The translations under genes and the position numbers were made by a program. Of a DNA stretch of 42,191 nt, positions 4,856 through 39,995 are shown piece by piece. The DNA is from a virus (Duplodnaviria > Caudoviricetes). The first letter of the stretch is position 1. Every line of letters starts with the position of its first letter. The notes below the pieces were generated by a model. That model saw nothing but the letters and a program-made list of their open reading frames with translations. It was not told where the DNA came from and did no database searches. The stretch is taken from positions 1 to 42,191 of IMG/VR virus record IMGVR_UViG_3300026233_000025. The stretch is one strand, 5' to 3'.

Positions 4856-7107
4856 CAGTCGTCCCTTTCGAGATCGGCATGCGCCGGCGCGTACTCAGGG
4901 CTGTCCCGCTCCAGCCGGCGGCGCATGCTCCGCAGGTCGGCGCCGGCGCGGTGAAGCGCCGACGACAGTTCGCCGCTGACCGCGCGCAGGTCGCCGTTGC
5001 GGGCGGCCATCGCCGCCACCTCGGCCAGGAGGCCGGCGAGGTCGTTGTTCAGCAACTGCAGGATCGCGCGGTCGGCCATGTCCCATGGGCGGTCGGCATG
5101 GGCGGGACGATTGGCGCGGCGCTTGTGCGCCCTCGCCCGCATGACGTCCGACAGAGCGTCCACCGCGCGATCGTCGGCCAGGAACTGCGGATCGGTCGAG
5201 GCTGGCGGAGCCTCTGCGGCCGGCTCGGCTGGTTCAGGCTCACTCGGCCGTTGGGGTGTCGGCTGCGACGGCGAAGGGTCGTTGATCCAGGGCGTGACGT
5301 AAGTCCCGCCGTCAGCCGGGCCGTCGAACTCGACGCAGACCTGGGCGTTGGCGACGACCGCCGCATTGACGCCGCTCGGCAGCTCCTGGGCCAACCAGTC
5401 CCAGGCCGCCTGGGTCAGCACGCCGAGGAAGCCGGTTCCGCTGGGCGCCTGGACCCAACTGACCAGGCGCAGGTTCACCAGCTCTCTCGCCATGGGGTCG
5501 CGGAAATAGTCCGCTACCCGCGCCCCGCGGATGGCGCCGCCGCGAGCTTCGACGCCGCTTGTCTCGGTCTTATGGGCGAGCTCAATGACGGCGAGCCGTT
5601 GCGGGGGCGTGAGCGCCAGCGGCGCGGCGGTCGCGGGGGGCGAACGGCGTTCGTCGTCAGCGGCGGGCGTGGCGGGCCGCAGGGCCTCGATATGATGCTC
5701 GCCGGCCTCGAGGTTCACCTCGCGGACCTGCTGGGCGAAGCTGTCGCGCGGCGGCTGGGGCGGCGGGTCCCAGCGCACCGCCGATGTCGCCGCGGGCTCG
5801 GCGGCGGCCGGCGACCGCGGCGGCGGCGGGTTGAGGAAAGCGGTCGCCCAGCGGGCGCTTTCGCCGGCCAGCCTCGCGCCCATGGCGCCGAGCGCCGTCT
5901 CGCGCACGGCTTGCACCATCGCCTCGCGATCGTCGCCGAACCCCTGATCGTCCAGCCAGGCCTGGGCCACGCTCGTGATCGCGCCGAAGACGCCATGGTC
6001 GACGTCGCGGACGCATCGGGCCAAGCCAAGATCCTCGGCCTGGGCCCAGTAGCCGCCGCCGGGCGGGGCCGATATCCGGGTCCATTCGTCCGGCGGCTCG
6101 ACGGCGTCGGGCCGGTGGGCGCCGACGTCGAGAGGTTCGAGGGCGACCTTGGCGGCGAGCTCGACCACCAGCATGGCGAGGCGTGGGCTGGCGGCCAGGG
6201 CGGTCACATGGCGCGGGGTCTTGACCGTGTCGCGCAGGGCCTCCCAACTGAAGACGCCGGGCTGGCCGGCGGCCTTGGCCCGCTCGCTTTCGCGAAATTG
6301 CTCCTTGTCCGCCTCTGTCGCCTCGGCGGCGACCTTCATGGCGATCTGGACGAAGCGGGGCGTCTTGCCGATGGCGGCGGCGATCTCGGCCGTGGTGCGG
6401 CCGAGGCGGCGGTGCAGCTTTAGGAACTGCTCGCCGGCCTCCAGGTTCGACAGGTCGGAGCGCTGGAGGTTCTCGATCAGCCCGGCCTCCATGATGGCCA
6501 GATCGTCGCCCGCCTCCACCCGGCAGAGCTCGACGTGGTCGGCGGTCCATTCGCCGCGCTGGATCAGCAAGCCCCAGGCGCGCCAGCGGCGTTCGCCGAA
6601 GGCGAGGATATGGAGGCCGTGAGGTCCGGCCGGGCGGACGCCGGGCGGTTGCTTGAGGCCGTGCTCGCGGATGGTCGCGGCGAGGCCTTCGATCTGGACT
6701 TGCTCCAGCCCCGAAAACTCGCGGGCGTTCTCCGGGTCGGGCGTAATCTCATCGTGCCGCAGGAGCGCGAAGCCCGCGGGGATCTCGGCCGAGGCCGTCC
6801 GCTCGCCGGAGAGGATTTCCAGGCGGGCGAGCATGTCCGCGCCCTCGGGGGTCAGTTCAATCGGATCGGAGGTGACCAATCCATCGGCCGCCAGCTTGGC
6901 GAGCGACTTGCGGATGTTCGACGGGTCCTTCCCGGTCTCGTTGGCGAGGGCGACGACCCCGACCGGCCAGACGCCGCGATCCGTCTTCCCGATCTCGGCG
7001 AGATGGGCGATGGCGCGAAGGAGGGTCGAGTTCTGCGTCGCGAGGATCTGGCGATCCTGGCCGTGGATGGCGGGCGACGGCGCATGGGCGTTCATCGGGG
7101 TTTCCAT
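4855..7107 (-). CDS. ParB/RepB/Spo0J-family multidomain protein (750 aa)
   Basis: PDPENAR...IREHGLKQP...GERRWRA (arginine patch), [11 protein letters not shown] ([15 protein letters not shown]); extra N-terminal wHTH-like segment and long C-terminal extension. Confidence 0.9.
5640..5654. repeat. Dispersed palindrome copy 1 (GCGAACGGCGTTCGT)
   Basis: Exact 13-bp core; inside the ParB-like gene. Confidence 0.75.
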
Positions 7108-7113
7108 GTTGGG

Positions 7114-7302
7114 CTAGACGGGGGCGAAGCGATGGGGGCGAAACAGGCCCTGATGGCGGTCGACCATCACGAGCCCCGTGGTCGTACAGCGGGTGACCTG
7201 GAGCAGGTCGCCCACTTCGAACGGCGGCTTCTGCTTCCCCGGCAGGCGCAGGTCGGTGAGGTCGACGACCCTGACGGTCGCTCCAGCGCGAAAGGGCGTC
7301 AT
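7114..7302 (-). CDS. Small hypothetical protein (possibly SH3/KOW-like)
   Basis: MTPFRAGATVRVVD...FRPHRFAPV; ATGA overlap with the upstream gene; start re-called from the track ORF. Confidence 0.6.
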   Translation of the reverse strand: MTPFRAGATVRVVDLTDLRLPGKQKPPFEVGDLLQVTRCTTTGLVMVDRHQGLFRPHRFAPV

Positions 7303-7670
7303 GGGCGCCATCCTTGGCTGGCGAGCTGGGCGAGCGCCTCGCGCGCCTCGGGCGCGGTCAGGCCGCAAGCGACGATGGCGAGGGGCTGGATCGAGCCGGG
7401 CTGAAGCTCCGGCGGCGCCGTGGCGGCCATTCGGCCAAAGAACAGCACCTCGCCCACGTCCGAGCGTTCGACGCGAACGCCGTTCGGGAACCGCTCCAGG
7501 CGACCGAGCAGCGTGGTCGCCGCCTGGGCGGGGGTGACGTTCCACAGGCAAAGCCAGCGGCGGCTGTCGGCGATCGGCGCATCGCCGACGCGGGGCGCGA
7601 ACGGGGTCAGGTTGATCGACACGTCGCGGCGCGCAGCCGCCGGCGGCGAGGCGGTTCGGGCGGCCCTCAC
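7299..7670 (-). CDS. Hypothetical protein
   Basis: C-terminal part of track ORF 7299..7796; GTG start chosen from the GTGA overlap (start uncertain). Confidence 0.55.
   Translation of the reverse strand: MRAARTASPPAAARRDVSINLTPFAPRVGDAPIADSRRWLCLWNVTPAQAATTLLGRLERFPNGVRVERSDVGEVLFFGRMAATAPPELQPGSIQPLAIVACGLTAPEAREALAQLASQGWRP
7473..7487. repeat. Dispersed palindrome copy 2 (GCGAACGCCGTTCGG)
   Basis: Exact 13-bp core; left operon. Confidence 0.75.
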
Positions 7671-7888
7671 CGGCGGCGGCTCCCGCGCTTGGGCTGCCAT
7701 CGCACAAGGGGGATCGCCGGCAGCGCCGCGACCTGCGCACGCTCCGCCCTGGCGGCCGGCAGGCAGACGAGGAGCAGGCCGACGACGACGGCCCACCGCG
7801 CCACCCGGCGACCGAGCGGCTCAACGACGCGCCCGCGCCTAGCGCACCAGGTCAACGGGCCGCTGTTCGGGATGTAGATCTCGGTCAA
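7667..7888 (-). CDS. Small membrane-anchored protein, first gene of the leftward operon
   Basis: TTG start preceded by GGAGG; one hydrophobic stretch. Confidence 0.5.
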   Translation of the reverse strand: MTEIYIPNSGPLTWCARRGRVVEPLGRRVARWAVVVGLLLVCLPAARAERAQVAALPAIPLVRWQPKRGSRRR

Positions 7889-7928
7889 TCCAAGGCCTCC
7901 GGTTCCGTGGAACGCACCTACCGGACCG

Positions 7929-7959
7929 GATGTAGCGGACTATTCGTCCTTCTTGTCAA
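7929..7959 (-). promoter_or_regulatory. Leftward early promoter (pL-like) with palindrome GGACTATTCGTCC in the spacer (candidate CI operator)
   Basis: Minus strand TTGACA-N17-GCTACATC resembles the Caulobacter housekeeping promoter (-10 GCTANAWC); palindrome at 7937..7949; tandem CGACAYATTCGC at 7969..7992. Confidence 0.6.
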
Positions 7960-8078
7960 CAATCATAGCGACACATTCGCCGACATATTCGCGGACTTTA
8001 ACGGACCAATGGGCGCGTTGCATCGGAGGCGGACACACGCGAAGGTTCTCTATTCATTGAAGAAAATGGGGACCCAAG

Positions 8079-8363
8079 GTGCCAGAGCCGACTTCATTGG
8101 CGAAACGCGTCAGACTGGCGGAGATCGTTGGATATGGGGTCGCCGCGATAGCGGTAGGCTTCGTCGCGCTGCTGATCATTGGCAGCGTCGTCCCGCCAGA
8201 AACCGGCGAGCAGAAGCTCGCACGCATCAAGGCCGCCTGCGAGAGGGAGTTCGGCGCAGCAAACGTCGAGGCGGTTAGTAGCTGTCAGGTCGCGATAGCG
8301 GTTAGAACGCTATCTGCCGCCGAAGATAGGAAATTGAAGAATGCTTTTGATGCGTCCCGGTAG
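8079..8363 (+). CDS. Small single-pass membrane protein (possible superinfection-exclusion or accessory gene)
   Basis: 94 aa, N-terminal TM helix, two Cys; convergent with and abutting cI; AT-richer. Confidence 0.6.
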   Translation: MPEPTSLAKRVRLAEIVGYGVAAIAVGFVALLIIGSVVPPETGEQKLARIKAACEREFGAANVEAVSSCQVAIAVRTLSAAEDRKLKNAFDASR

Positions 8364-8963
8364 TCATAACGGGAATATTGCATGCAGCGCCTTGACGCTC
8401 GAAGCATCGTACCGGATTTCCTTTTCAGGATTATACTGAAAGACGAATATATGACCGTCCTTCTGCCGGCGGTATGTTTTAAGAACGCCAGAGCCGTCGT
8501 TGAATTCAATCACAACGTCCTGGTCTTTACCGGGCGGAACGTTACGCTGTGCTAGCTTGCGCTCCCCAGCCCAGATGCGCGGCTCCATGCTGCTTCCAAA
8601 CGCGCGCACCACGAAATACTCGCCCCGCAAACGCATGCCCATTGGCAGCTCGATCGAGTCGAGGATGCGTCCCTCATTGATTGCGAAGCGGTCTCCGTCA
8701 GATCCCGCCGCGTAACCGTACTCGGGGACCCGCATCGCGCCCTCGGCGCTATCCAGGCGCTCCACCGGCTCCGCGGCTTGTCCCGATAAGAAGCGATCAA
8801 TGATCTGCGCTTGGCGCGTGTCGGGAAACGCTCCCGGCTTGCGGAGGGTTCGCGCCAATTGGCTACGATCCATTCCCATAGCCTTAGCCAGGGCGCTTCG
8901 CGCACCCCGCCCCATCTCGTCCACCCGACGAGAAACTGCCCGCCAATCAAGGGGTTCGTCCAT
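8364..8963 (-). CDS. CI-like repressor (HTH plus S24 autopeptidase)
   Basis: HTH (RSALAKAMGMDRSQLARTL), YAAG cleavage region, GSSMEP catalytic Ser, VLKTY Lys; ATG 8963 preferred over the track's TTG 9029. Confidence 0.9.
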   Translation of the reverse strand: MDEPLDWRAVSRRVDEMGRGARSALAKAMGMDRSQLARTLRKPGAFPDTRQAQIIDRFLSGQAAEPVERLDSAEGAMRVPEYGYAAGSDGDRFAINEGRILDSIELPMGMRLRGEYFVVRAFGSSMEPRIWAGERKLAQRNVPPGKDQDVVIEFNDGSGVLKTYRRQKDGHIFVFQYNPEKEIRYDASSVKALHAIFPL

Positions 8964-9075
8964 GCGCGCAAATATGCTCGCAGGATTTGTCGCGTAGCCA
9001 CGGGCAGCGATGTTGACTGAGAGGGCCAAATCAGTTCAGCCAATAGCGACTTTCTGTTAGCAACGGATAGTCTCT

Positions 9076-9336
9076 ATGGGACAAATTATCCCTCCGCGCA
9101 ACACCGAGGACAAGGCGTCGCCATCGCGAATCGCCCGAGCCGTACTGGGTTCCCGACGCCTCGCGGAGCTCTGTGAGCGTACCACTGAGGCGATCCGCAA
9201 GTGGGACCGGCCTCGCTCGAAAGGTGGAACCGGCGGCCTAATCCCTTCCGAGTTTCAGGCTCGCATCTTGCGGGTGGCTGAAGATGAGGGGCTTCCGTTG
9301 GGCCCCCGCGATCTGATCGGGGAGGCGGTGCAATGA
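9076..9336 (+). CDS. Cro-like regulator
   Basis: Divergent from cI; LGSRRLAELC...AIRKW...KGGTGGLIP. Confidence 0.8.
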   Translation: MGQIIPPRNTEDKASPSRIARAVLGSRRLAELCERTTEAIRKWDRPRSKGGTGGLIPSEFQARILRVAEDEGLPLGPRDLIGEAVQ

Positions 9337-9707
9337 GAGCGCCGCATCGCGAACGCCGTTCGCCTGCTCACCCTTCCGCTGCCCGGGCCGCATGGCTGTT
9401 CGTGCTCAACGCGGCCGTCGATGCGGCCGGCGACCCGGCGGTCCAGCCTTACGAGCTGATCGGCGCGTTGCGGGGGCTGTCCGAGGTCAACTTCCCGTTG
9501 GCGGCTGGCGATGCGCGGCGGCGGTTCGTCAAGGCGTTCTGCGATCAGGCCCGCGCCTGGTGCGAGGCGTCCGCGACCACTCGGAAGACGTTCGCCGGCG
9601 TTCTCGCCGAGGGCGCTCGCGCCCTCCAGGATCTGATGGTCGAGCAAGGGACCGAGATCGCGGCGGCGGCGCGTGCACGGATGGGCTTCGGGGGCGACGA
9701 TGCGTGA
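9333..9707 (+). CDS. Hypothetical protein (CII position)
   Basis: 124-aa ORF, ATGA overlap with cro. Confidence 0.65.
   Translation: MRAPHRERRSPAHPSAARAAWLFVLNAAVDAAGDPAVQPYELIGALRGLSEVNFPLAAGDARRRFVKAFCDQARAWCEASATTRKTFAGVLAEGARALQDLMVEQGTEIAAAARARMGFGGDDA
9349..9363. repeat. Dispersed palindrome copy 3 (GCGAACGCCGTTCGC)
   Basis: Perfect 15-mer; 5' end of the gene after cro. Confidence 0.85.
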
Positions 9708-10155
9708 CCGGCCCCGGCGCGAGCCCGTCAGCGCGGTCGAGATCGCCTTCGTAACCGAGAAGCGTCGCCTGCGGGCGAGTTGGGACGCCTGCGCAGCCAT
9801 GCTCGACCGATCGGTCCACGACCTCCGTTTGGCCTGCGATCCATCCTACGCGCGTCTGCATCCCGGTTCACGGCCGCCGACCGTGGTCGCGGAGGCGGTG
9901 AAGGAGCCCCCCAAGCCGGCGTCGCGGGACATCGTCGGCCGCCGGACCATCGAGGCGCGCACTCTGGTCAGCGTGGCCGGCGGCTGCCGCAAACCGGCGC
10001 AGGTCGCACTCGCGCTCGGCATCACCTCGGCGAGCGCGACGATCGCGCTCATATCGCTGCAGAAGAAGGAGCTGATCGACCACGACGCGGCCGGCTGGTC
10101 GGCGACGCGGTCCGGCCACGCCCAAGCGCTCCGCTTGGGGGGCAATCATGGCTGA
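9700..10155 (+). CDS. Hypothetical protein with HTH/wHTH-like regions
   Basis: ATG 9700; KPAQVALALGIT...LQKKELI. Confidence 0.65.
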   Translation: MRDRPRREPVSAVEIAFVTEKRRLRASWDACAAMLDRSVHDLRLACDPSYARLHPGSRPPTVVAEAVKEPPKPASRDIVGRRTIEARTLVSVAGGCRKPAQVALALGITSASATIALISLQKKELIDHDAAGWSATRSGHAQALRLGGNHG

Positions 10156-11926: not shown

Positions 11927-14460
11927 CGAACGCCGTTCGCGACGCCTATCACGACTTCCTGGCGGCCAAGGTGCCGCCGGCTCCCCGCTGCGGCTTCGAG
12001 ATCGAGCCCGACCGGGTCAATCCGATCCTCAAGGACCATCAGCGGGCCATGGTCTGCTGGGCGGTCCGTCTCGGCCGGGCCGCCCTGTTCGCCGCCTTCG
12101 GCCTGGGGAAAAGCGTCGTCCAGTTGGAGATTGCGCGGATCATGCGCGAGATCTCCGGCGGGATGGGCCTGATCGTCATCCCGCTCGGCGTGCGGCAAGA
12201 GTTCATGCGGGACGCCGCCATGCTGGGCGTTCGCGTCCGGTTCATTCGGCGGATCGAGGAGGCGGACGATCCCGGGGGCCTCTACCTGACCAACTACGAG
12301 ACGGTTCGGGACGGCAAGCTCGACCCATCCTGTTTCGCGGTCGCCTGCCTGGACGAGGCCAGCGTTCTGCGAGGCTTCGGCGGCTCCAAGACCTTTCGCG
12401 AGTTCATGCGCCTGTTCGACCAGGTCGCCTATCGCTTCGTCGCCACGGCCACGCCGTCGCCCAACGATTTCATAGAGCTGCTCGCCTATTCGGCGTTCCT
12501 GGGCGTGATGGATGTCGGGCAGGCCAAGACCCGGTTTTTCCGGCGAGACAGCGAGCACGCCGACGCCCTCACCCTGCACCCGCACAAAGAGCGCGAGTTC
12601 TGGCTGTGGTGCGCAAGCTGGGGTCTGTTCGTCCAGCGGCCGAGCGATCTCGGCTTCTCCGACGACGGCTACGACCTGCCGCCCCTGCAGGTGATCTATC
12701 ACGAAGTGCCGGTGGACCATCGGGCCGCCGGAACCGACAAGAGCGGCCAGGGCCGCCTATTCCAGGACGATGCGGTCGGCGTGGTCGCGGCGTCCAAGGT
12801 CAAGCGCGACACCCTGGAGGCCCGCATCCGGAAGATGCGCGAGATCCTCGCGGCCGACCCCGAGGGGCGCTACATCCTGTGGCACGATCTGGAGGCCGAG
12901 CGGGCGGCGATCGAGCTCGCCCTGCCGAACGTCGTCAGCGTGTTCGGCTCCCAGGATCTTGAGGCGCGCGAACAGGCGATCGTCCTGTTCAGCGACGGCT
13001 GGTTTCCCTATCTCGCGGCCAAGCCGGTGATCGCCGGCTCAGGCTGCAACTTCCAGCGCCATTGCCACAAGGCGGTCTTCCTGGGGATCGGCTTCAAATT
13101 CAACGACTTCATCCAGGCGATCCACCGCATCCAGCGATTCCTGCAGGGGCATCCCGTCGAGATCCACGTGATCTACGCCGAGAGCGAGCGCGCCGTGCTG
13201 CGGACCCTGCTGGAGAAGTGGGCGCAGCACGAGGAAATGGCGAAGACCATGAGCGCGATCATCCGCGAATACGGCCTGTCCAACGCCGACATGGCGAAGG
13301 TGCTCACCCGCGCCATGGGCGTGAAGGATCGGATCGAGGTGACCGGCGACAACTATCGCTTGGTGAACGAAGACACCGTCGTCGAAACGCGACGGATGCC
13401 GGCGGACAGCGTGGGCCTGATCGTCACCTCGATCCCGTTCTCGACGCAGTACGAGTATTCGCCGAACTACGCCGATTTCGGACACACCGACGACAACGCC
13501 CATTTCTGGCGACAGATGGACTTTCTCGCCCCGGAGCTGCTGCGCGTGCTCGCGCCGGGCCGGGTGGCCGCCATCCACGTGAAGGACCGGATCGTGCCAG
13601 GGGGTATGACCGGCCTCGGCTTTCAGACCGTCTACCCGTTCGCGGACGACTGCCGGGCGTGCTTCCGCAAGGCCGGCTTCGCCTACCTCGGCGAAAAGAC
13701 CAACCTGACCGACGTCGTCCGCGAGAACAACCAGACCTATCGGCTGGGCTGGAGCGAGCAGTGCAAGGACGGATCGCGCATGGGCGCGGGCCTGCCGGAA
13801 AAGGTGCTGCTGTTCCGCAAGCCGCCCTCCGACCTGTCCAACGGTTACGCCGACCGGCCGGTGTCGAAGGACAAGGATCGCTACAGCCGGGCGCGCTGGC
13901 AGCTCGACGCGCACCACTTGATGCGCTCCTCCGGCGACCGCCTGGTCGCGCCGGAGGAGTGGGCCAAGGTCGAGAAGGCCGAAGACGTCTGGCGGCTGTG
14001 GAAAGCCTTCAATCTCGACCGGCTTTACGACTTCGAGCACCACGTCAAGGTGGGCGAAGCGCTGGACGCAAAAGGCAAATTGCCGCCGACCTTCATGTTG
14101 CTGCCGCCGCACAGTTGGCACGACGACGTCTGGACCGATGTCGCCCAGATGCTGTCGCTCAACACCGTCCAGGCCCAGCAGGGCGCGGAAAAGCACCTGT
14201 GCCCCCTGCCCTTCGATATCGTCGACCGGCTGATCATCCAGTGTTCCGAGCCGGGCGACGTGGTGTTCGATCCGTTCGGCGGCCTGATGACCGTGCCCTA
14301 TCGCGCCATCAAGCACGGGCGCGTCGGCTGGGCGAACGAGCTGAACCCGGCCTACTTTCTCGACGGTGTGAAGCACGTCGAGGCCATGGCGCGCGAGATG
14401 GCGACGCCGACCCTCTTCGACCTGATCGGCGAGCGTAGCGCGCCGGAGGCGGCTGCGTGA
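11923..14460 (+). CDS. SNF2-like helicase / N4-N6 DNA methyltransferase fusion
   Basis: GLGKS, LDEAS, ATATP, QAIHRIQR helicase motifs, then TSIPF (motif IV-like), HLCP and DPFGG (motif I) in beta-class order; GTG start in a GTGA overlap. Confidence 0.88.
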   Translation: MTNAVRDAYHDFLAAKVPPAPRCGFEIEPDRVNPILKDHQRAMVCWAVRLGRAALFAAFGLGKSVVQLEIARIMREISGGMGLIVIPLGVRQEFMRDAAMLGVRVRFIRRIEEADDPGGLYLTNYETVRDGKLDPSCFAVACLDEASVLRGFGGSKTFREFMRLFDQVAYRFVATATPSPNDFIELLAYSAFLGVMDVGQAKTRFFRRDSEHADALTLHPHKEREFWLWCASWGLFVQRPSDLGFSDDGYDLPPLQVIYHEVPVDHRAAGTDKSGQGRLFQDDAVGVVAASKVKRDTLEARIRKMREILAADPEGRYILWHDLEAERAAIELALPNVVSVFGSQDLEAREQAIVLFSDGWFPYLAAKPVIAGSGCNFQRHCHKAVFLGIGFKFNDFIQAIHRIQRFLQGHPVEIHVIYAESERAVLRTLLEKWAQHEEMAKTMSAIIREYGLSNADMAKVLTRAMGVKDRIEVTGDNYRLVNEDTVVETRRMPADSVGLIVTSIPFSTQYEYSPNYADFGHTDDNAHFWRQMDFLAPELLRVLAPGRVAAIHVKDRIVPGGMTGLGFQTVYPFADDCRACFRKAGFAYLGEKTNLTDVVRENNQTYRLGWSEQCKDGSRMGAGLPEKVLLFRKPPSDLSNGYADRPVSKDKDRYSRARWQLDAHHLMRSSGDRLVAPEEWAKVEKAEDVWRLWKAFNLDRLYDFEHHVKVGEALDAKGKLPPTFMLLPPHSWHDDVWTDVAQMLSLNTVQAQQGAEKHLCPLPFDIVDRLIIQCSEPGDVVFDPFGGLMTVPYRAIKHGRVGWANELNPAYFLDGVKHVEAMAREMATPTLFDLIGERSAPEAAA
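11926..11940. repeat. Dispersed palindrome copy 4 (ACGAACGCCGTTCGC)
   Basis: Exact core at the C5-MTase/SNF2-MTase junction. Confidence 0.8.
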
Positions 14461-14669: not shown

Positions 14670-15679
14670 GCGAGCGCGCCTGTTCGTGGGCCCAGGATCA
14701 GGACTGCCCGACCAAGACCGCCAAGTTCTTGTTGATGCGGCTCGGCGCCTACGCCGACGCCGATGGCGTCGCATGGGCCTATGTCGAGCGGCTCGCCAAG
14801 GAGATGCAAACCACGGACCGCACGGTGCAGCGATGCCTGCGGGCGTTGGAGGTCGCGAAGCTGATCGAGCGAACCGGCGGGTTCCATCACCGCAACGTCC
14901 CCTATTATCGCCTCCGGCTCGACCCCGACGAGGCCGTCTGCGGCTCCCGAACGGTGACACGGGTGTCACCGTTGGCGCATGTGGCGGGGGCGACCGACCG
15001 GGCGCAGGGCTGCTCGAACGGTGACACCCATGTCACCGTTGGCGGCTCGAACGGTGACATGGGTGTCACCGTTGACCCTGCGAACGGTGACACGGGTGTC
15101 ACCCCAAAGCAGAGATTATCCTCTGAGAGTAATCCTGACGGATCACTCTCAGAGGACGGGCGCGCGCGCGGCGTCGGCGCGTTCGAGCGGTTCATGGCGG
15201 CCTACCCCGAGAGCGGGGCCAAGCGGACCGACTGGCGCGCCGCCCTGGCAGCGTTCGACGGCGCGGCCGGGTTGGTCGCTGCGGAGAGGCTGATCGGCGC
15301 GGCCGAGCGGTTTGCGGCCGATCCGGACCTCGCCAAGGGCGACTTCGGCGCGCCGGCGGCCGAGCGTTGGCTCGCCGGGGAGCGCTGGCGTCCGTTCTTG
15401 CCGCCGAAGGGTGCGGCGGCTCGAACCGTCGCTGCGACGCCGTCCCCCTGGCCCACGCCGCCGGACGCGCTGCGACGGTCGTTCGCCGCCAAGCATGGCG
15501 ACGCCCTGGCGGCCAGCTATTTCCCGGTCGGTCATCTGCCTGAGCGCCGGTTGCTGGTCGCGAGGACGGGCACGGCCCGCGACTGGCTGCGGGCGAACGC
15601 CGCCGATTGGCTGACGGCCGAAGGGCTTTCCGTGTGCTCAGCGGCCGAGGCCGGCCGCCAAAATCAAGCTGAGGGGTGA
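14666..15679 (+). CDS. Phage replication initiator (lambda O-like, N-terminal wHTH)
   Basis: AKFLLMRLGAYAD...VERLAKEMQTTDRTVQRCLRALE; contains internal iterons. Confidence 0.85.
   Translation: MSERACSWAQDQDCPTKTAKFLLMRLGAYADADGVAWAYVERLAKEMQTTDRTVQRCLRALEVAKLIERTGGFHHRNVPYYRLRLDPDEAVCGSRTVTRVSPLAHVAGATDRAQGCSNGDTHVTVGGSNGDMGVTVDPANGDTGVTPKQRLSSESNPDGSLSEDGRARGVGAFERFMAAYPESGAKRTDWRAALAAFDGAAGLVAAERLIGAAERFAADPDLAKGDFGAPAAERWLAGERWRPFLPPKGAAARTVAATPSPWPTPPDALRRSFAAKHGDALAASYFPVGHLPERRLLVARTGTARDWLRANAADWLTAEGLSVCSAAEAGRQNQAEG
14948..15156. repeat. Replication origin: four palindromic iterons plus an inverted repeat
   Basis: CGAACGGTGACA-NNN-TGTCACC(GTTG) at 14948, 15015, 15048, 15081, followed by AT-richer sequence and TCCTCTGAGAGT...ACTCTCAGAGGA. 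Confidence 0.85.
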
Positions 15680-15683
15680 GGCG

Positions 15684-16680: not shown

Positions 16681-16702
16681 TCATTGCACGAAGTGCATCC
16701 GC

Positions 16703-17475: not shown

Positions 17476-19583
17476 TAGGCTTCGACTACGCCCGCTTCGG
17501 CGAATACGGCGCTGTGATGCGCGCGAACGGCGTTCGCGTGGATCGCGCCGCAGCCGCCGGCCTCCGTCCGCCGCCGCGCATCAGCGTGGCGGAATGGGCC
17601 GGGAAGCACCGTCACTTCTCGGAGGACAGTCCCTATCCGGGCAAGTGGCGGCATGAGACCGCGCCCTATCTGGTCGAGATCATGGAGGCGTTGTCGCCCC
17701 ACGATCCGATGGAACAGGGCGATATCATGAAGTGCGCCCAGTCCGGCGGCTCGGCGTCCGGCGAGAATTTCGTCGGATACGTCGCCGACGTCGCGCCCGG
17801 CCCGGCGATGTACATCCAGGCGACGTTCAAGGCGGCGCTGGATTGGGCGGCCGAAAAGCTGTGGCCGATGATCGAGGCCTCTCCCCGGCTGAACCCCGAA
17901 CAGGACGGGGCGATCCGGGCGCAGAACGCCAAGGACGGGGCCGGGTCCAAAAAGGACAAGATCGTCTTCAAGCGAGGGGGCTACCTGATCCTGGCGGGCG
18001 CCAACTCCGCCCCCAGCCTACGCCAGCGCACCGTCCGGTACGCGATCGAGGACGATCTCGATCAGTTCCCGGACAACCTCGACGGCCAGGGATCGCCCGA
18101 GGGCATGATCGACAACCGCCTGAAGGTCTATCGCCGTCAAGGGCTGTCGAAGCGCCTCGGGATCTCGACGCCGACCATCGAGGGCGGCAGCAAGATTTCC
18201 CGGCGCTACAAGGCCGGCGACCGGCGGCGCTACTACCTGAAATGCCCGCATTGCGGATCGCGTTTCGACCTGGTCTGGGGCGACATCAAGTGGCCGGATG
18301 GAAAGCCGGAGGAGGCTTACGTCGTCGCGCCGTGCTGCGGCGGCGTCGTGGAGCACTGGCAAAAGAACGGCATGAGCCTAACCGATGGCTGGTTGTCGGC
18401 TGAGATCGACGGCGTGGCCTCGCCGCGGCACATGGAAGAGGCGGCGTTCCAGGCGCTGCGGGCGAAGATGCCGGCCAGCCGAAAGCGCGGCTGGCATATC
18501 ACCGGCGAGATCACGACCTTCCAGACCTGGGCGGACATGGCGGTCGGCTTCGTCGCCGCCCAAGGCGACCTGAACAAGCTGAAGACCTGGACCAATCTCG
18601 ACCGGGGCTATCCGTTCGAGCTCAAGGGACAGACCCCGGATTACGAGCTGCTCAAGGAGTTGAAGGAGCAGCATTGGGGGCGAGGCGAGTTCCCATACGG
18701 CGGCTTGGTGGCGACCATGGGCGTCGATGTCCAGGGCGACGGCCTCTATTACGAGATCGTGCTGTGGGCCGAGAACGGCGAGAACTGGTCCTACGGTGTC
18801 GGGTTCATCACCGGCGCCACCGACGTCCCCGGCGAAGGGGCTTGGGCCGATCTCGACAAGGTCGCCATGCGACCGATCCGGTATCCGGGGGGCAAGACCT
18901 TCCCAATCGATCAGGCCTGCGTCGACGCCGGCTACCATACCGCCGCGGCGGAAGCGTTCTGCAGGGCTCGTCCGAACCGTCTCGCCGTATTCGGCCGCGC
19001 CGGCTGGACCCTCCCCGTTCTCGGCCGTGGCGAGAATATTCGATACGAACGGCAGGGCGAAAACACCGGCCGGGCCACCAGGAAGTCGGAGGATAAGGCC
19101 TACCTGGTCGGCACTTACGGCGTGAAGCTGACCTTCTACGGCTACCTGCGATCGACGCTGAAGGCGGCGGCCGACGAGCGCGCGACAGGCGTTCCGTCTC
19201 AAGTTCAGGGGCGGTGTCACTTCAGCCGTGACGCTCCCGACCAGTGGTTCGAACAGATCACCGCTGAGACCGTCGTAGTGAAGATGGTCAACGGCTATCC
19301 GTCCCGCCGGTGGGAGCCGATGCCTGGGCGGCAAAATCACTGGCTGGACTGCCGGGTTTACAACCATGCAGCGGCCGAAAAGCTGATGCTCGACACCTTG
19401 GACGAGGTCGATTGGGCGGCGTTGAAGGCCGAACGCTACGCCGCCGCCAGTCCGGTCCAGGGCGATCTGCTCGATCTCGCGCTCAAGGCGCCGCCTCAAC
19501 CCGCGCCTGCGGTGGTGGCCGCCGCTCAACCTGTCCCCGATCGGTCCGGCTGGATCGAAGCGACTGATGACTGGATCGCCTGA
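17472..19583 (+). CDS. Terminase large subunit (GpA family)
   Basis: KCAQSGGS Walker A variant, IEDDLD, ISTPT, CPHCG, GVDVQ, VDAGY, NHWLDC. Confidence 0.95.
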   Translation: MIGFDYARFGEYGAVMRANGVRVDRAAAAGLRPPPRISVAEWAGKHRHFSEDSPYPGKWRHETAPYLVEIMEALSPHDPMEQGDIMKCAQSGGSASGENFVGYVADVAPGPAMYIQATFKAALDWAAEKLWPMIEASPRLNPEQDGAIRAQNAKDGAGSKKDKIVFKRGGYLILAGANSAPSLRQRTVRYAIEDDLDQFPDNLDGQGSPEGMIDNRLKVYRRQGLSKRLGISTPTIEGGSKISRRYKAGDRRRYYLKCPHCGSRFDLVWGDIKWPDGKPEEAYVVAPCCGGVVEHWQKNGMSLTDGWLSAEIDGVASPRHMEEAAFQALRAKMPASRKRGWHITGEITTFQTWADMAVGFVAAQGDLNKLKTWTNLDRGYPFELKGQTPDYELLKELKEQHWGRGEFPYGGLVATMGVDVQGDGLYYEIVLWAENGENWSYGVGFITGATDVPGEGAWADLDKVAMRPIRYPGGKTFPIDQACVDAGYHTAAAEAFCRARPNRLAVFGRAGWTLPVLGRGENIRYERQGENTGRATRKSEDKAYLVGTYGVKLTFYGYLRSTLKAAADERATGVPSQVQGRCHFSRDAPDQWFEQITAETVVVKMVNGYPSRRWEPMPGRQNHWLDCRVYNHAAAEKLMLDTLDEVDWAALKAERYAAASPVQGDLLDLALKAPPQPAPAVVAAAQPVPDRSGWIEATDDWIA
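17523..17537. repeat. Dispersed palindrome copy 5 (GCGAACGGCGTTCGC)
   Basis: Perfect 15-mer; 5' end of terL. Confidence 0.85.
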
Positions 19584-19811: not shown

Positions 19812-21305
19812 ATGGCCGATTTCTCGCGGCTGATAGACGGCCTGATCGAACCGTTCGCGCCGCGCCTGGCGCGCCGGCGATATGCCGAGCGCATGGCGCT
19901 CCGCGAAATCCGCCAGTACGACGCCGCCGCGGCGGGCCGCCGCACGCAGGGCTGGCGCCGGACCGGCGCCAGTGCGAACAGGGAGGTTCGTCAGGGCCTC
20001 GTCCAGCTACGCAACGGCGCACGCGAGCTCGTGCGTAATAACAAGTACGCGGCGTCGGCCGTGCGCCAGATCGTCGCCAACATGGTCGGCGACGGGATCA
20101 CCGCCACGGCCAAGCACGCCGACCCGGTCATCCAGCAGCGGGCTCAGGACGAGTACGACCGCTGGGCGGAAGGCAAGGTCGACGATCAGCTCGACTGGTA
20201 CGGCGTCCAGAAGATGACCGCCCGATCCGTCGTCGAGGGGGGCGAAACCCTGCTCTCCTGGGGACCGGACAGCGACGGCCCGGATGGGATGGTCCGTGGC
20301 CTGGAAGGCGACTATCTGGACCACCTCAAGCAGACCTTCTCGCTCGGCGGCCCTCGCATCGATCAGGGCGTCGGCTTCGACGCGAACGGCGTTCGCGCCG
20401 AATACTGGCTGTTCGACACCCATCCGGGCGAAATCGGCGGCTATGGCGCGGCCTCGAAGGCTTACAGCGCGGCGAACATAGACCACGTCTATGAAATGCT
20501 GCGTTGGGGCCAGCCGCGCGGCATCTCCTGGTTCGCGCCGGTCGCCATGGATTTGCGCGACGGCGCCGATGTCGAAGACGCCGTGCGCATGAAGAAGAAG
20601 GTCGAGGCCTGTCTCGCCCTGGTCCTGACGCCGCAGGAGGGCGGCGCTGGCTCGCCGCTCGCCGCCCAGCAGGGGCAGGACGACCCGACCCGGCCAGCGA
20701 TCGAGACCCTGCGCCCCGGCATGGTGTTTCGGACGCGCCCCGGGGAGACCGTCAGTACGCTGAACCCGACCTCTACGGGCGGCGAGGTCGAATTCCTGCG
20801 GCACCAGTTGATGGGGGTCTCCGCCAACCTGGCGCCGTATCACCTGGTGTCGGGTGACCCGTCGCAATCGAACTATTCGCAGGTCAGGGCGCAGCTCCTC
20901 GGCTTCTGGGCCAATCTCGATGACTGGCAGCACAACATGATGCTGCCGCTCATGTGCCTGCCCGCGTTTCAGCGCCGGATGCGCCGCCTCGCCTATCAAA
21001 CCGGCGACAAGCGCTTTCTCCAGGTCAAGGCGGAATGGGCGATGCCGGTTCGGCGGTTGATCGATCCGATCAAGGATCTGGCCGGCGAAGAGATCGAGAT
21101 CCGCGGGGGTCTGAAATCCATGCTGAAGGCGCTCTCCGAACGCGGGATCAACCCCGAGCGGCATATCAAGGAAATCGCGGCGTTCAACGAGCTCGCCGAC
21201 GCCGCCGGCGTTGTCCTGGACACCGATCCTCGCCGCGTCACCGACACCGGCGTCCTGCAGGCCGCCGTCGGCTACATCGCCGCCAAGGGCGACCAAACCT
21301 CCTAG
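19812..21305 (+). CDS. Portal protein, lambda family
   Basis: ARELVRNN, QPRGISW, SGDPSQSNYS, IDPIKD. Confidence 0.95.
   Translation: MADFSRLIDGLIEPFAPRLARRRYAERMALREIRQYDAAAAGRRTQGWRRTGASANREVRQGLVQLRNGARELVRNNKYAASAVRQIVANMVGDGITATAKHADPVIQQRAQDEYDRWAEGKVDDQLDWYGVQKMTARSVVEGGETLLSWGPDSDGPDGMVRGLEGDYLDHLKQTFSLGGPRIDQGVGFDANGVRAEYWLFDTHPGEIGGYGAASKAYSAANIDHVYEMLRWGQPRGISWFAPVAMDLRDGADVEDAVRMKKKVEACLALVLTPQEGGAGSPLAAQQGQDDPTRPAIETLRPGMVFRTRPGETVSTLNPTSTGGEVEFLRHQLMGVSANLAPYHLVSGDPSQSNYSQVRAQLLGFWANLDDWQHNMMLPLMCLPAFQRRMRRLAYQTGDKRFLQVKAEWAMPVRRLIDPIKDLAGEEIEIRGGLKSMLKALSERGINPERHIKEIAAFNELADAAGVVLDTDPRRVTDTGVLQAAVGYIAAKGDQTS
20382..20396. repeat. Dispersed palindrome copy 6 (GCGAACGGCGTTCGC)
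   Basis: Perfect 15-mer; in the portal gene. Confidence 0.85.
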
Positions 21306-23808: not shown

Positions 23809-23823
23809 GCGAACGCCGTTCGC
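23809..23823. repeat. Dispersed palindrome copy 7 (GCGAACGCCGTTCGC)
   Basis: Perfect 15-mer; intergenic, 1 nt after a stop codon. Confidence 0.9.
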
Positions 23824-26933: not shown

Positions 26934-26948
26934 GCGAACGCCGTACGC
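26934..26948. repeat. Dispersed palindrome copy 8 (GCGAACGCCGTACGC, one mismatch)
   Basis: Intergenic, between tail tube and chaperone. Confidence 0.7.
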
Positions 26949-26968
26949 ACCAAACCTTTGGAGCCCAT

Positions 26969-27645: not shown

Positions 27646-30600
27646 CGTGGCCATCCGTGTTGGCACGGAGGGCAAGGCCGATGTTAAGCGGGACTTCCAG
27701 GAGATCGGCCAGGCCGGCAACGCGGCGATGGACGGATTAGCCTCGGCCGCCGAGCGCGCCGCCCAGGTCGCCGAGCGCGCCGCCGCACGCCAGCGCACCG
27801 CGTGGCAGGCTCAGGCCCAGGCCGCGCACAAGGCTATGGTCGCGGACTACGCTCAGCGGGACATCAACGGCGTGCTCGGCGTGCGTCAGATGTTCGACAG
27901 CGGCGCGGCGGCCCGTTCGGCGGCGGTGTTCGAAGAGGTCATGCGGGCCCAGGACCAGCTCGCCGAGAGGACCCGAAACCTCAAGGCCCAGATCGACCCC
28001 TTGTGGGTGGCCCAGGAGCGATTGAACCGCGCCGAGGCCGAGGCGACCGACTTGCTGCGCGCGGGAACGATCACCACGGCCGAGCACACCGCCGCCGTGG
28101 CGCGGGCGAAGGGCGTCTATGCAGAGACCGCGGCGCATCTGAGGCGGCATGGCGAGGCGGCTGGTTTCAATCGCGCCCAGCTAATGGAGCTGACCCACGT
28201 TGCGAGGGCCTCCTTCGACGCCATCGCGGCTGGGGCTAATCCGCTGCAGGTGCTCGCTATGGAGAGCGGGCGCGCCTATCAGGCCCTCTCCAGCGGTCAG
28301 GGCGGACTTGCCGGCGGCATCGCAGCGCTTGGAGCGTTTATCAATCCGGCGACTGTGTCGATTGCAGCGCTTGCAGGCGGCCTCGCGGTCGCGGGTGCTG
28401 CAGCGCTGATGTATCAATCAGCTACGGAAAAGCTAAGCGCTGCGGCGGAAGGCTTCGGGCGCAGAGCGGGCGCTACCGGCGCTCAACTTGAGCGAACAGC
28501 CGAGGCTGGAGCAAGAGCGGCCAGGATTTCGGTCGGCGCTGCTAGAGAGATGGAGGCCGCATTCCTTCATACCGGCACAATTGGATCAGCCGTCTTTGAA
28601 GGATTGATCGGAGTTTCCAAGAATTACGCTACCGCTATGGGCGTGAACTCGAAAAAGGCGGGAGAGGAGCTCGCCAGTATATTCGCCAGTCCATCGGAAG
28701 GCGCGGTGCGCCTGAACGAAAAGTTGGCCCTCCTGGATGACAAGACACTTCACTATATTCAAACTTTGGCGCTTTCGAGCGACAAAACTGCCGCACAGAG
28801 TGCGCTATTGCGGACCCTGCAGCATGATCTCGATGGGGCGTCCGAACACGTCGATGCGTTGAAGCGCGCAATGGATCGCCTCAACGTGGCCGGCTCGACG
28901 GCGCTGACCTGGCTCGGGAGGGTGATGGCGCCGACGACCCAAGATCGGCTGGATGATCTGATCAAGCAGCGTTCGAACTTGCTCCCGTTCCAAAGCACGG
29001 CGAAGTTCGATGTAGAGATCGCTCGCTTGCAAAAGGAACAGGCCGACGAACAGTCGAAAATCGCTTCTTCACGGCTAAACTACAGATCAGCAAATGCCGG
29101 CCAGATCGCGAACAAGCTGCTTGGCTTTGATCGGCGGGAGAAGCTCGAGGAACAGCTCAATGAGCTCAAGGCCGGCGCCGCCGCCGGACGCGATAGGTTT
29201 AGCGCCGAAGGCTGGGAGCGCACGCAGACCGCTATCGACGCCCAGACCCACGCGCTCAAGACGTGGATGCCGGCCTATGAAAAAGCGCAGCGGCTGTCGG
29301 CTCTGGACGCCAAGATCGCCGAAGCCAAGACCCCGGCCGAGAAGGCCGCCTTGGCCGCGCAGCGCGAGCGCATCCAGCTTTCGGGCGAGTTCGTCACGGC
29401 GTCGGCGGCCGAGGCGTCGGCCCAGGACAAGGCGAACAAGGCGCGGTCCGAGGCGGCCAAGTCCGGAGCCGGCCACGCCCAGACGCTGGCCCGGGAAAGC
29501 GCCGCAATGGCGGCGAACGCAGCGGGCGCGCTGGACCTCGCCAGGGCCTACCTGGTCAGCGACGCGGCGGCGATGGTGGCCGAGGCGCGCCGGAAGGCGA
29601 CCACGGACGCGGCGCGCAAGGGCGCGGACGTGGAGCTGCGCATTCGACAACAACTGTCGCTGGCTGTCTCGGAGCAGGCCGCGCAGGGGGCCAAGGCGGT
29701 CGCCGACCTGACGGCCCAGACCGCCGGCCAACGCGCCGTCAACGACGCCATGGCGGCCGGTGTCCTGGGCCGGGAACAAGCCGACGCGCAGCTCCGGGTC
29801 GAAATGGCGCTGCGCCCGCTGGTGACCGCCCAGACAGTCGCGCACGTGAAGGGTCTGCAGGCCGAGGAGGCCGCGCTGGCGCAGCTCATCGACCGCACCA
29901 AGACGGCGATGATCCAGGCCGACGAACAGGCGCACCGCAAAGCGGTCCTGCAGGCGATCGACACTGCGAACGACAATTTGACCATCATGCGCGAGGAGCT
30001 GCGCCTCATCGGGGCGACGAACGCCGTTCGCGCCGTCGCCCTGGCGCAGAAGCGCGCCGAAATCGAGCTCGACGGCAAGGGGATCGCCAAGGACAGTCCG
30101 GACGGTCAGGCCTACATAAAGGCCCGTCGCGACGAGGCCGCGCTCGGCGCGGACATCCAGCGCGCTCAGTACGTTGAGCAGACCAGCCGCGACCAGCAGA
30201 ACAATCTGGAAATGCTGGCCCTGGAGCGGCGGCTCCTCTGGGCGTCCGCGGGAGAGCGCGATCGCGAGATCGAGCAACTGCGCATCATGCAGCAGTTGAA
30301 GCTGCAGGGGATCGACGCCACCAGCGCCGAGGGACAGGCGATCCTTCGCAACGCGGATCTGCTGACGAAGGTCAATCACCAGCTCGCCGTCGAGAGGGCC
30401 ACGCAGGAGGAGCTGCGCCAGACCGGCGAGGCGGTGATCGACGATCTGGGCTCGGCGCTCAGCGGCGCGGATTGGGGAAACTGGGCCGACGCCGGCCGTC
30501 GCGCGCTGCAGGACATCCAGCAGGAGTTCGTGAAGCTCTCCCTGCTGAACCCCCTCAAGAACTACCTGTTCGGCTCATCGCTCCCCACAATGGGAACCGC

Positions 30601-32375: not shown

Positions 32376-32770
32376 TGCGCGACCAAGAGGCGTTGATCGA
32401 GTTCATCGAAGCCGCCATGCGAACGCCGTTCGCATGGGGTTCCCACGATTGCGTGACGTTCGCCGCTGGGGCGATCGAAGCTCAGACCGGCCGGCGTGTT
32501 CTGGAGGCCGTCCAAGGCGGCTGGACGGACGAGCGCAGCGCTCGCCGCGCGCTGGCGAGGCGTCGCGGTCTCGCCGCCGCTGTCGGCCGCATCCTGTCGC
32601 CCGTACCGCCCGCGCTGGCGCATCGGGGCGACATCGGCGCCGTGCACGATCCCCGCGGCGACCTGGCGCTGGTCGTGATCGAGGGCGCCACCATCGTCGG
32701 GCCGGGGCCTGACGGGCTCGTCCGTCAGCCGAGATCAGTGCTGGTCCAGGCGTGGAGCGTGCAGCAATGA
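32375..32770 (+). CDS. NlpC/P60-like tail tip assembly protein (DUF6950-like)
   Basis: PFAWGSHDCVTFAA...AHRGDIG. Confidence 0.8.
   Translation: MRDQEALIEFIEAAMRTPFAWGSHDCVTFAAGAIEAQTGRRVLEAVQGGWTDERSARRALARRRGLAAAVGRILSPVPPALAHRGDIGAVHDPRGDLALVVIEGATIVGPGPDGLVRQPRSVLVQAWSVQQ
32419..32433. repeat. Dispersed palindrome copy 10 (symmetry extends to CCATGCGAACGCCGTTCGCATGG)
   Basis: Perfect 15-mer; 5' end of the NlpC/P60-like gene. Confidence 0.85.
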
Positions 32771-37581: not shown

Positions 37582-37590
37582 GAGGGCCGC

Positions 37591-38106: not shown

Positions 38107-38115
38107 GAGCCCCAT

Positions 38116-38556: not shown

Positions 38557-38557
38557 C

Positions 38558-38572
38558 GCGAACGCCGTTCGC
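38558..38572. repeat. Dispersed palindrome copy 11 (GCGAACGCCGTTCGC)
   Basis: Perfect 15-mer; intergenic, 1 nt after a stop codon and before a terminator. Confidence 0.9.
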
Positions 38573-38580
38573 ATCCGACC

Positions 38581-38609
38581 GCCCCGCGCCGCCTCGGCCG
38601 GGGCTTTTT
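38581..38609 (+). terminator. Intrinsic terminator before the holin-like genes
   Basis: GCCCCG...CGGGGC followed by TTTTT. Confidence 0.65.
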
Positions 38610-38626
38610 CATGCCTGGAGGGGCAC

Positions 38627-38986: not shown

Positions 38987-39312
38987 TCATGACCAACCTG
39001 ATGGCGGCCGCCTGCATTGTTGCGGCGGCCGCGCTTGTGCTGCGCGCGACGCTGCTGGGGCGGCAGGGCCAGGGCTGGCCCAACGCCTCGCGCGGGGTGC
39101 GGTGGGCGACAGAGCTGTTCGGCCTGGCGGCATTCCTGCGCGGCGTCGAACTGGTCGCCCTCGGCAAACCGGCGTCGTTGGGCGAGACGGGGTTCGCCGC
39201 CGCCGTACTGATCTACGCCGCCGTCATGCTGTGCAATCTGTGGCGTCAGCGTCAGCGCCGCGCCCAGCTCGCCGCCGCCGTCAGTCCGCCAGCCACGCCG
39301 CCGGCACGTTGA
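38983..39312 (+). CDS. Second membrane protein (holin/antiholin-like)
   Basis: About 3 hydrophobic helices and a basic tail; ATGA overlap. Confidence 0.55.
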   Translation: MIMTNLMAAACIVAAAALVLRATLLGRQGQGWPNASRGVRWATELFGLAAFLRGVELVALGKPASLGETGFAAAVLIYAAVMLCNLWRQRQRRAQLAAAVSPPATPPAR

Positions 39313-39664
39313 GCGCGGCGGCCAGGGCGGCGGCGGTCTCGGGGCTCGCCGTCTTGGATCGCCGCTCCAGGTCGCTCAAGAACCCCTGAGCGATCCCGGC
39401 GCGGTCGGCTAGTTCGACCTGGGAGAAATGCCGCCATTTGCGCATCGCCTTGAGACGGCTATCCCCGCTCAGCATCAGGGCCGACACCTCGGGCGGCAGG
39501 ATGTCGTCAGGCGTCAATTCGGCTTTGCGGCGGTCGTAGATCGCCACGTCGGCGGCGTCCTCTTCAGCCTCGGCCGCCGCCGCCAGCAGGTCGTCATAGT
39601 CGCGGCGGGAGAGGACGACCATTTCCTCGCCGCCGGGGGTGGTGATAATTTGCGGTGCGCTCAT
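39281..39664 (-). CDS. Antitoxin: Phd-like N-terminus plus XRE HTH
   Basis: EEMVVLSRRDYDDLL...LKAMRKWRHFSQVELADRAGIAQGFLSDLE. Confidence 0.85.
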   Translation of the reverse strand: MSAPQIITTPGGEEMVVLSRRDYDDLLAAAAEAEEDAADVAIYDRRKAELTPDDILPPEVSALMLSGDSRLKAMRKWRHFSQVELADRAGIAQGFLSDLERRSKTASPETAAALAAALNVPAAWLAD

Positions 39665-39673
39665 GTCGGCCTC

Positions 39674-39925
39674 TCAGTTCCTGCGATAGGTCGTCGTCGA
39701 GCGGCGACCGATATAGATGGCGAGGATGGTCTGCGCGTCCTCGTCGAAAATCACCCGATAATCCCCGACCCGCATCCGGTAGCCGTCGCGGCCCGACAAG
39801 TGCTTGATGTCGCCCCGGCCCTCGACCGCGTAGGTGCTGAGGGCCGTGACGATCGCCTCCTGGGCCATCGCCGGGAGGGCGTCCAGGTCCTTGGCGGCGG
39901 CGCGGGTGAAGACAATCGTTTTCAT
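39674..39925 (-). CDS. RelE/ParE-family toxin
   Basis: MKTIVFTRAAAKDLDAL...DIKHLSG...YRMRVGDYRVIF...IGRR; GAGG RBS; toxin-first gene order. Confidence 0.9.
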   Translation of the reverse strand: MKTIVFTRAAAKDLDALPAMAQEAIVTALSTYAVEGRGDIKHLSGRDGYRMRVGDYRVIFDEDAQTILAIYIGRRSTTTYRRN

Positions 39926-39932
39926 GACCTCT

Positions 39933-39974
39933 TTATCTCTGAAATATCGCTGACTGTCTAGAGATAATATCTCT
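39933..39974. promoter_or_regulatory. Probable TA operator/promoter
   Basis: AT-rich; TTATCTCT...AGAGATAA inverted repeat and palindrome AGAGATAATATCTCT (39960..39974). Confidence 0.55.
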
Positions 39975-39980
39975 GATGGC

Positions 39981-39995
39981 GCGAACGCCGTTCGC
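39981..39995. repeat. Dispersed palindrome copy 12 (GCGAACGCCGTTCGC)
   Basis: Perfect 15-mer; intergenic between the TA promoter and the endolysin. Confidence 0.9.

Follow-up and report, generated by a model that had tools for sequence, protein, structure and literature searches.

The window analyzed here is the whole of the virus record IMGVR_UViG_3300026233_000025 (G000; Duplodnaviria, Caudoviricetes), a provirus of 42,191 nucleotides and 67.8% GC with the gene plan of a lambda-like temperate phage. Besides a serine integrase, a leftward operon and CI and cro, it encodes methylases, a replication gene, and terminase, head, tail and lysis genes. Our subject is a palindrome dispersed along it, CGAACG-S-CGTTCG (where S is G or C), together with an orphan ParB-type gene in the leftward operon, whose 750-residue product (P0001) is very probably, judging from sequence comparison, the protein that binds the palindrome. 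There are 11 exact 13-bp cores and one copy with a single mismatch, separated by gaps of 1423–6139 bp, with no copy in positions 1–5640 or past 39994 (Table 1). Seven copies are perfect 15-mers, and at 32420 the arms reach 11 bp each, which makes a 23-bp perfect palindrome. Four copies are intergenic, four lie within 18 codons of a gene start and four are internal to genes; the head-tail region holds seven of the twelve. An earlier note on this DNA had reported the twelve copies, the seven 15-mers and the intergenic and near-start placements, and our recount agrees, the exact cores beginning one base after the starts that it gave. When CGAACG and CGTTCG were paired with spacers of 0–11, only a spacer of 1 was present, and matches with two mismatches were as frequent as expected by chance (6 found versus 6.4 expected).

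Neither composition nor coding explains the array. The expected number of cores in the window ranges from 0.0034 with an order-0 Markov model, close to the 0.003 estimated earlier for about 68% GC, to 0.07 with an order-5 model trained with the site copies left in. Dinucleotide-shuffled sequences contained 0.01 copies on average, and none of 100 reached 11. Coding copies are read in three frames, giving the peptides ERRS, NGVR, NAVR and RTPFA, and when codons were redrawn from phage usage with the proteins fixed, 0.1 copies were expected at the nine places that can hold the motif, eight of which do. A peptide motif is therefore rejected, both by the frames and by a synonymous choice far beyond codon usage, which bears out a check that the earlier note had proposed. 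Since the sequences flanking the copies are unrelated to one another, the array is not a mobile repeat either.

The earlier note had also asked whether the motif might be equally dense in host DNA. We measured this in genomes other than that of the window's own host, using 61 genomes (~211 Mb) from the Caulobacter family, to which G101 belongs, a set chosen blind to both the motif and ParB. Of the 62 matches, six share a 45-kb contig of G101 and 11 fall in a 51-kb span of G152; the other 45 are scattered and amount to 0.2 per Mb versus 261 per Mb in the window, an ~1,200-fold difference. The two clusters are prophage-sized and each holds this ParB gene, which in G152 has a site inside it. In the complete 4.8-Mb chromosome of G102, a 35-kb region around the ParB gene contains all five copies with one variant arm as well as the only exact core; G154 (unpublished, count only) has no match. 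A search with the capsid protein returned 54 loci, three of which are this phage and the other 51 of which are without any copy. When 28 of the records behind these 51 loci, which are fragments 16–76% complete that lack this ParB type, were searched whole, they gave two single matches to the motif and only weak N-domain ParB matches. Together with the shuffles, Markov expectation and codon redraw, the host density rejects a host repeat or an effect of composition.

The sites and the ParB gene go together whichever is searched first. A scan of IMG/VR with the 15-mer returned at least 150 loci; 50 of ~102 records were taken, with long ones favored, and 40 of these contain 3–21 copies. ParB is encoded by 33 of the 40 (31 by Pfam, two by our own profile), and by all 14 records that are at least 90% complete and have at least three copies. 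Starting instead from a protein pattern, with a query derived from motif-bearing phages, we obtained 80 loci and examined 50 records. Among them, 29 of 37 in-group records have at least three copies of one variant of the site (CGAACG in 8, CGAACC in 15, CGCACG in 4 and CGAGCG in 2), and none of 13 records from the out-group ParB clade has CGAACG or CGAACC sites. In 29 array-bearing phages that were retrieved almost in full, ParB is the sole gene among 51 window genes to be present in every one. The terminase is found in 19, the portal in 12, CI in 7, an XRE gene in 6 and Cro in 2. Hence, of the candidate binders named by the earlier note, the ParB-like protein goes with the sites, and XRE, CI and Cro do not. 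All-against-all clustering places ParB in 29 of 30 genomes; the next family reaches 22 and is absent from the window.

Relatives each use one variant (CGAACC, CGCACG, CGAGCG or CAAACG), which partly tracks the ParB subgroup, and the CGAACC clade of 15 rows is well supported. The phage nearest by its head genes (G052, 66–67%) has CGCACG as its variant and no longer has a site in the terminase gene, and G144, in which the recognition helix is altered, has four copies of GCAAACG-N-CGTTTGC instead. Arginine at the position equivalent to G201 is found in 7 of 11 CGAACC users versus none of 39 CGAACG users, mostly within one clade. The orphan phage ParB family comprises at least 150 clusters at 50% identity, and its 150 representatives contain 35 site-compatible peptides versus ~5 expected. 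The nearest named relatives of the window ParB are from Caulobacteraceae and other alphaproteobacteria; a single-protein scan for close relatives of the window phage gave none.

Dispersed palindromes of other kinds were seen beside more distant ParB genes. Two cultured phages with out-group long ParBs, L480 (VarioGold, a Variovorax phage inducible with mitomycin) and L481 (Aval), have dispersed 16-bp palindromes of the GTGCA-N6-TGCAC type at 5756, 15561, 21002, 29452, 31899 and 37753 and at 5488, 7662, 13369, 20625 and 38568, respectively; single copies of this type occur in six out-group loci. The ParB loci L198, L210, L194, L204 and L219 have yet others (ATTGCT-N5, GTAACC-N5, TCGGAT-N2, GTTTCC-N2, CGCTCGAGCG). 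The record L478 (ON073792) is deposited as that of a phage, yet its content looks like that of a parAB plasmid; it includes polysaccharide genes, and five 16-bp palindromes are spread along it. L477 and L479, deposited as phages of cyanobacteria, have GC contents of 72% and 64%, a lambda-like layout and a long ParB, and no palindrome array was found in them. No array was found either in the GenBank phages OM681334 and PP438413, which encode distant long ParBs, and four other long orphan ParBs inspected in the 61-genome set, which seem to belong to other subfamilies, are without these sites.

P0001 is predicted to combine the core of a ParB clamp with additional DNA-binding domains (Table 1). 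Its CTPase motifs are intact (G171-ERR for GxxR and E212-N-L-Q-R216 for ENxxR), and its model over residues 113–299 matches 6t1f (Z 14.5, rmsd 3.9, 160 aligned). HTH_ParB is called in 85 of 85 relatives and not on P0001 itself. Since the N-terminal addition differs (winged helix, XRE or absent) among phages with an identical site, the central domain is indicated as the reader, and it is highly likely that its helix-turn-helix recognizes the palindrome. The domains at residues 308–417 and 501–591 gave no firm match, which is not in itself a sign of novelty; the terminal helices beyond them may dimerize. Among 85 of the 150 representatives that were scanned, every extra Pfam family that recurs is of a helix-turn-helix type, all well-supported additions are DNA-binding domains, and no nuclease, methylase or defense-related addition was seen. 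A Ros/MucR C-terminal domain is present in three of 27 phage ParBs, probably through one event (L406:1083-2993, L447:5389-7935, L402:15222-17765), and an H-NS C-terminal domain in one distant homolog, P0062, so that two lineages are predicted from their sequences to bear the domain of a host silencer. Neither pattern was matched in the 150 family representatives.

A partner ATPase is missing from most of these phages. ParA (AAA_31) was absent from 48 of 50 records, by a search whose control gave a signal in 14 of 14; there were two matches, one of them over the cut-off and none in the window. The ParA-activating motif (L/F/I)G(K/R)G(L/F/I) was found in none of 28 phage ParBs and in one of 150 representatives. 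In 28 neighborhoods, read with a crude gene caller, parB mostly sits among small genes that follow one another on its strand, often toward an integrase; an XRE-type gene is directly 3' of it in two, and no neighbor is conserved. The leftward operon of lambda is an early operon, and by analogy parB is probably an early gene, with P0001 presumably made early after infection or induction.

Table 1. The ParB-type gene, the palindrome sites and landmark genes of the window
Feature	Position	Strand	Details
ParB-type gene, orphan (P0001, putative binder)	4855..7107	-	750 aa; TIGR00180 66.8 bits, cut-off 58.45
N-terminal winged-helix domain (predicted)	6808..7062	-	residues 16-100; MarR 3vb2 Z 10.7, rmsd 2.1, 74 aligned
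ParB N-terminal (CTP-binding) domain	6463..6771	-	residues 113-215; Pfam ParB_N E 2e-7
Central helix-turn-helix domain	6208..6450	-	residues 220-300; recognition helix R251-F-V-Q254
C-terminal half	4858..6207	-	units 308-417 and 501-591 weakly winged-helix-like (TM 0.4-0.5), then terminal helices
Site 1	5641..5653		inside parB, codons 485-489, low-confidence linker, peptide DERRS
Site 2	7474..7486		in small ORF 7299-7700(-), ~370 bp upstream of parB
Site 3	9350..9362		codons 6-10 of ORF 9333-9707, downstream of cro
Site 4	11927..11939		helicase-methylase gene, codons 2-6
Site 5	17524..17536		5' end of terminase large subunit; equivalent position occupied in G001, G007, G035, G039
Site 6	20383..20395		portal gene, codon 191; no conserved site here in relatives
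Site 7	23810..23822		intergenic; stop of head-decoration gene 2 nt before
Site 8	26935..26947		one mismatch; intergenic, with the tail tube and chaperone genes on either side
Site 9	30018..30030		tape measure gene, codon 796
Site 10	32420..32432		DUF6950 tail gene, codon 16; center of the 23-bp perfect palindrome
Site 11	38559..38571		intergenic; stop codon 2 nt before
Site 12	39982..39994		intergenic, between divergent relE-like and endolysin genes
Serine integrase	1-1623		read in the same direction as parB
Early operon (probable)		leftward	holds P0001
CI and cro	8364-9336		

Across 30 genomes, 94 of 257 sites are intergenic versus 38 expected, an excess that also fits a lower coding cost outside genes, and 97 are deep in genes versus 170 expected. 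Gaps between divergent genes are not enriched (9 intergenic sites versus 11.8 expected). A site is present inside parB or up to 700 bp upstream of it in 23 of 28 phages versus 10.3 expected, and the central base is G or C in 185 of 206 sites. Of 21 genomes examined for spacing, 19 have at least five sites; taken together, these 19, which include related genomes, are spaced more evenly than random (Stouffer z 8.6), with a median gap of 3.9 kb and only 7 of 164 gaps shorter than 1 kb; in the window, the coefficient of variation is 0.46 versus 0.89 for random placement (p 0.006). Positions are kept where the peptide allows, as in the terminase (four relatives), and elsewhere turn over: the DUF6950 site is kept in two relatives and the portal and tape-measure sites in none. 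Selection thus looks as if it acts on coverage of the whole element. These findings support the claim of the earlier note that the palindromes are selected, genome-wide sites for a dimeric protein.

We consider that the twelve evenly spaced palindromes are probably the loading sites of the phage's own ParB-type clamp, which would coat its chromosome. By analogy with other ParB clamps, P0001 is quite likely to load and slide as they do: a dimer would bind the palindrome, CTP would close the ring into a clamp at each site, and the clamp would slide several kilobases either way, which, with a site every 3–4 kb, would coat the phage chromosome end to end. The clamp would hold phage DNA and the extra DNA-binding domains would grip other DNA, so that, about the time of excision, replication and integration, the free phage circle might be compacted or tied to the nucleoid of the host. 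Since these arms come without ParA, bridging or tethering is suggested, and we tentatively favor such a physical purpose, i.e., compacting or tethering of phage DNA without a ParA motor.

Several points weigh against this interpretation. Seven motif-bearing records with 3–5 copies (48–77% complete) show no ParB, and eight of the 37 in-group records have no array of these variants in the stretches examined, which for two variants spanned 12–19 kb. The 29 array-bearing genomes were picked knowing that ParB was present, so that their count shows that no other gene is common to them rather than how often ParB occurs. Users of CGCACG are scattered on the tree, which is a quick one with mostly weak branches and with labels shared by kin, and no clean residue-to-base code was found when one was sought. 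At profile position 143, the window protein has alanine where 149 of 150 relatives have arginine, yet it uses the common site. The terminal helices (646–735), which are no more than a candidate for C-terminal dimerization, have pLDDT values of 55–75 and gave no match. Finally, taken one by one, only 12 of the 19 genomes, among which some are related, show significantly even spacing.

A close rival, itself possible rather than likely, is that the same binder and sites serve long-range transcription control. P0001 would silence in the manner of KorB or block RNA polymerase, and thereby delay late genes or stabilize lysogeny; alternatively, like VirB or BisD, it would counteract silencing or activate transcription. 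Stopping the clamp, the part played by KorA, would fall to the fused DNA-binding domain. There are precedents in what has been described of KorB, whose twelve 6-1-6 sites of 13 bp are spread across 60 kb (PMC13768133), and of BisD (PMC12409273), a ParB clamp that belongs to an integrating element and has an activator domain added to it. The Ros/MucR ends of three relatives and the H-NS end of another, the intergenic excess and the site in the relE/endolysin divergent gap would suit this role as well. However, divergent gaps in general are not enriched, more than a third of the sites are deep in genes, positions turn over where those of OB are conserved, no neighboring regulator is conserved, and silencer-domain fusions are rare. 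Moreover, a physical coat fits better than promoter control the seven sites in the head-tail region, which probably requires few promoters.

Less probable, and in our view unlikely, is that the coat made by this binder protects free phage DNA against nucleases or SMC-type defense of the host, with the variants acting as a private label between co-resident phages. Shielding would need the gap-free cover that even spacing gives, an early parB and a single variant per phage agree with it, and a survey of prophage ParB proteins proposes anti-defense roles for the fusions in general (PMC12704722). Against it, no nuclease, methylase or defense-related domain was seen among the 85 members, and most phages share CGAACG, which makes it a poor private label. 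It is more doubtful still that the array is a dispersed centromere by which ParB partitions a plasmid-like phage state via host ParA or SMC. The ParB fold and intact CTPase motifs speak for it and dispersed centromere sites exist in N15, but ParA and its binding motif are nearly absent here and these phages integrate. That the sites belong to another protein (as CI, Cro or XRE stoperators, or for a LexA-like or Chi-like host factor), or are a repeat or composition effect, is very improbable, since, even if the half-site GAAC is similar to the LexA box of Gram-positive bacteria and dispersed motifs read by the host have reportedly been seen in lambdoid phages (PMC12315714), the repressor genes are shared by few of the phages, the motif is rare in host DNA and in capsid-related loci without this ParB type, and the flanks are unrelated.

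Other features of the window deserve mention. A C5 cytosine methylase gene followed by one for a helicase fused to an N6/N4 methylase (10148-14460) is also present in G012 and G152. The replication-initiator gene contains four GGTGACA-N4-TGTCACC palindromes (14953-15103), likely origin iterons, and akin repeats occur in L183, L193, L196, L205, L213, L227, L230 and L244. Positions 1-46, read by eye, resemble the 3' end of a tRNA-like attachment site beside the serine integrase, and ARAGORN found no whole tRNA. A RelE/ParE-like toxin and XRE antitoxin pair lies on the minus strand in the lysis region (39281-39925), adjoining site 12. Near-identical copies of the stretch 4300-9700 occur in runs from 13 studies of very different habitats, a pattern compatible with a host that is widespread or carried in reagents. 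Public RNA runs contain the stretch only in the form of contigs, whose flat depth agrees with a DNA origin, and a promoter scan of 7000-10200 gave chance-level matches only.

These findings give a large family of orphan phage ParBs a concrete DNA target, which makes its function testable. Should the coat be physical, it would be a use of a CTP clamp free of ParA, with a bearing on how the small phage circle is held, organized or protected between entry and integration. More speculatively, temperate phages might widely encode a motor-free organizer of this kind: a CTP clamp loaded every 3–4 kb on their own DNA, with swappable arms (winged helix, XRE, captured MucR or H-NS domains) that would compact the free chromosome or tether it to the nucleoid and steer integration, replication or silencing, the site variants being a specificity code between phages. 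The natural series of one-base variants is in any case a resource for ParB specificity and for orthogonal DNA-labeling pairs. What is new here is this variant series with its example of a helix change, the blind host-family control, a cultured model and the fusions to silencer domains. The components themselves are familiar from KorB/OB, and the surprise is moderate until function is shown.

How does this array compare with known systems? Mycobacteriophage stoperators and the conserved inverted repeats of phiC31 are also many short sites through a temperate phage, often near gene junctions. Those are bound by an immunity repressor, whereas here the repressor is not common to the site-bearing phages and the sites are palindromic rather than oriented, so the likeness to stoperators drawn in the earlier note fits poorly. 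The LexA box is GAAC-N4-GTTC and stands at SOS promoters of the host, in contrast to the GAAC-N3-GTTC with fixed inner bases found here, which is rare in host DNA (0.2 per Mb). The likeness to parS, also drawn earlier, fares no better as regards partition: ParA is lacking, and the sites are more even than random where the centromeres of ParABS cluster. Nonetheless, chromosomal ParB-parS and Noc-NBS (6T1F, 1VZ0, 7NFU) provide the best sequence and fold matches to the core, and Noc too works without ParA at dispersed sites. The differences are a 13-bp site with a center base versus a 16-bp site, a recognition helix of R-x-V-Q versus R-S-H-V-A-N, the lack of a ParA motif and the location on a phage. 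As described for ParB and Noc (PMC7383237), a change of site goes with a change in the same domain.

VirB of Shigella is reportedly a ParB-type CTP clamp that serves a purpose other than partition on mobile DNA (PMC10653881). The same holds for BisD of ICEclc, which has an added domain and belongs to an integrating element; it has two loading sites, a 50-kb slide and a partner, BisC, whereas here there is about one site per 3–4 kb and no partner was seen (PMC12409273). Orphan prophage ParB genes are known, numbering 872 of 80,326 in the survey cited above (PMC12704722). Its accessible text names methylase and DUF fusions, assigns helix-turn-helix-bearing ParBs almost only to plasmids and chromosomes and gives no DNA sites, and its datasets may list the proteins studied here. 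A phage ParB that activates 5mYOX is described as lacking a DNA-binding domain, unlike P0001 (PMC13229309). The VarioGold paper names the ParB gene, and its text has no match for "palindrom" or "inverted repeat." A literature search by exact motif and topic, covering mainly freely accessible papers without their supplements, found no such arrays in integrating phages.

The closest counterpart is KorB with its OB sites on the IncP plasmid RK2, as the earlier note had suggested and the comparative evidence supports. As far as published descriptions extend, both involve a ParB-CTPase-type protein and a 13-bp 6-1-6 palindrome with a central G or C, at twelve sites on one mobile element (PMC13768133, PMC11790492), and ParB, KorB and BisD have in common that a dimer binds a palindrome, CTP closes the ring and the clamp slides over kilobases (PMC13768133, PMC12409273). 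P0001 matches KorB (8QA8/8QA9) by profile (E 1e-20) and by fold (Z 14.2, rmsd 5.7, 184 aligned). The array differs from KorB/OB in its sequence, in belonging to an integrating phage rather than a plasmid, and in having no IncC/ParA and no conserved KorA-like neighbor; here, the sites are evenly spaced and their positions turn over, and P0001 is twice as long, with added DNA-binding domains. Taken together, these comparisons point to an array that would work like KorB/OB and yet differs on tested features from both KorB/IncC and ParABS and is not a partition system.

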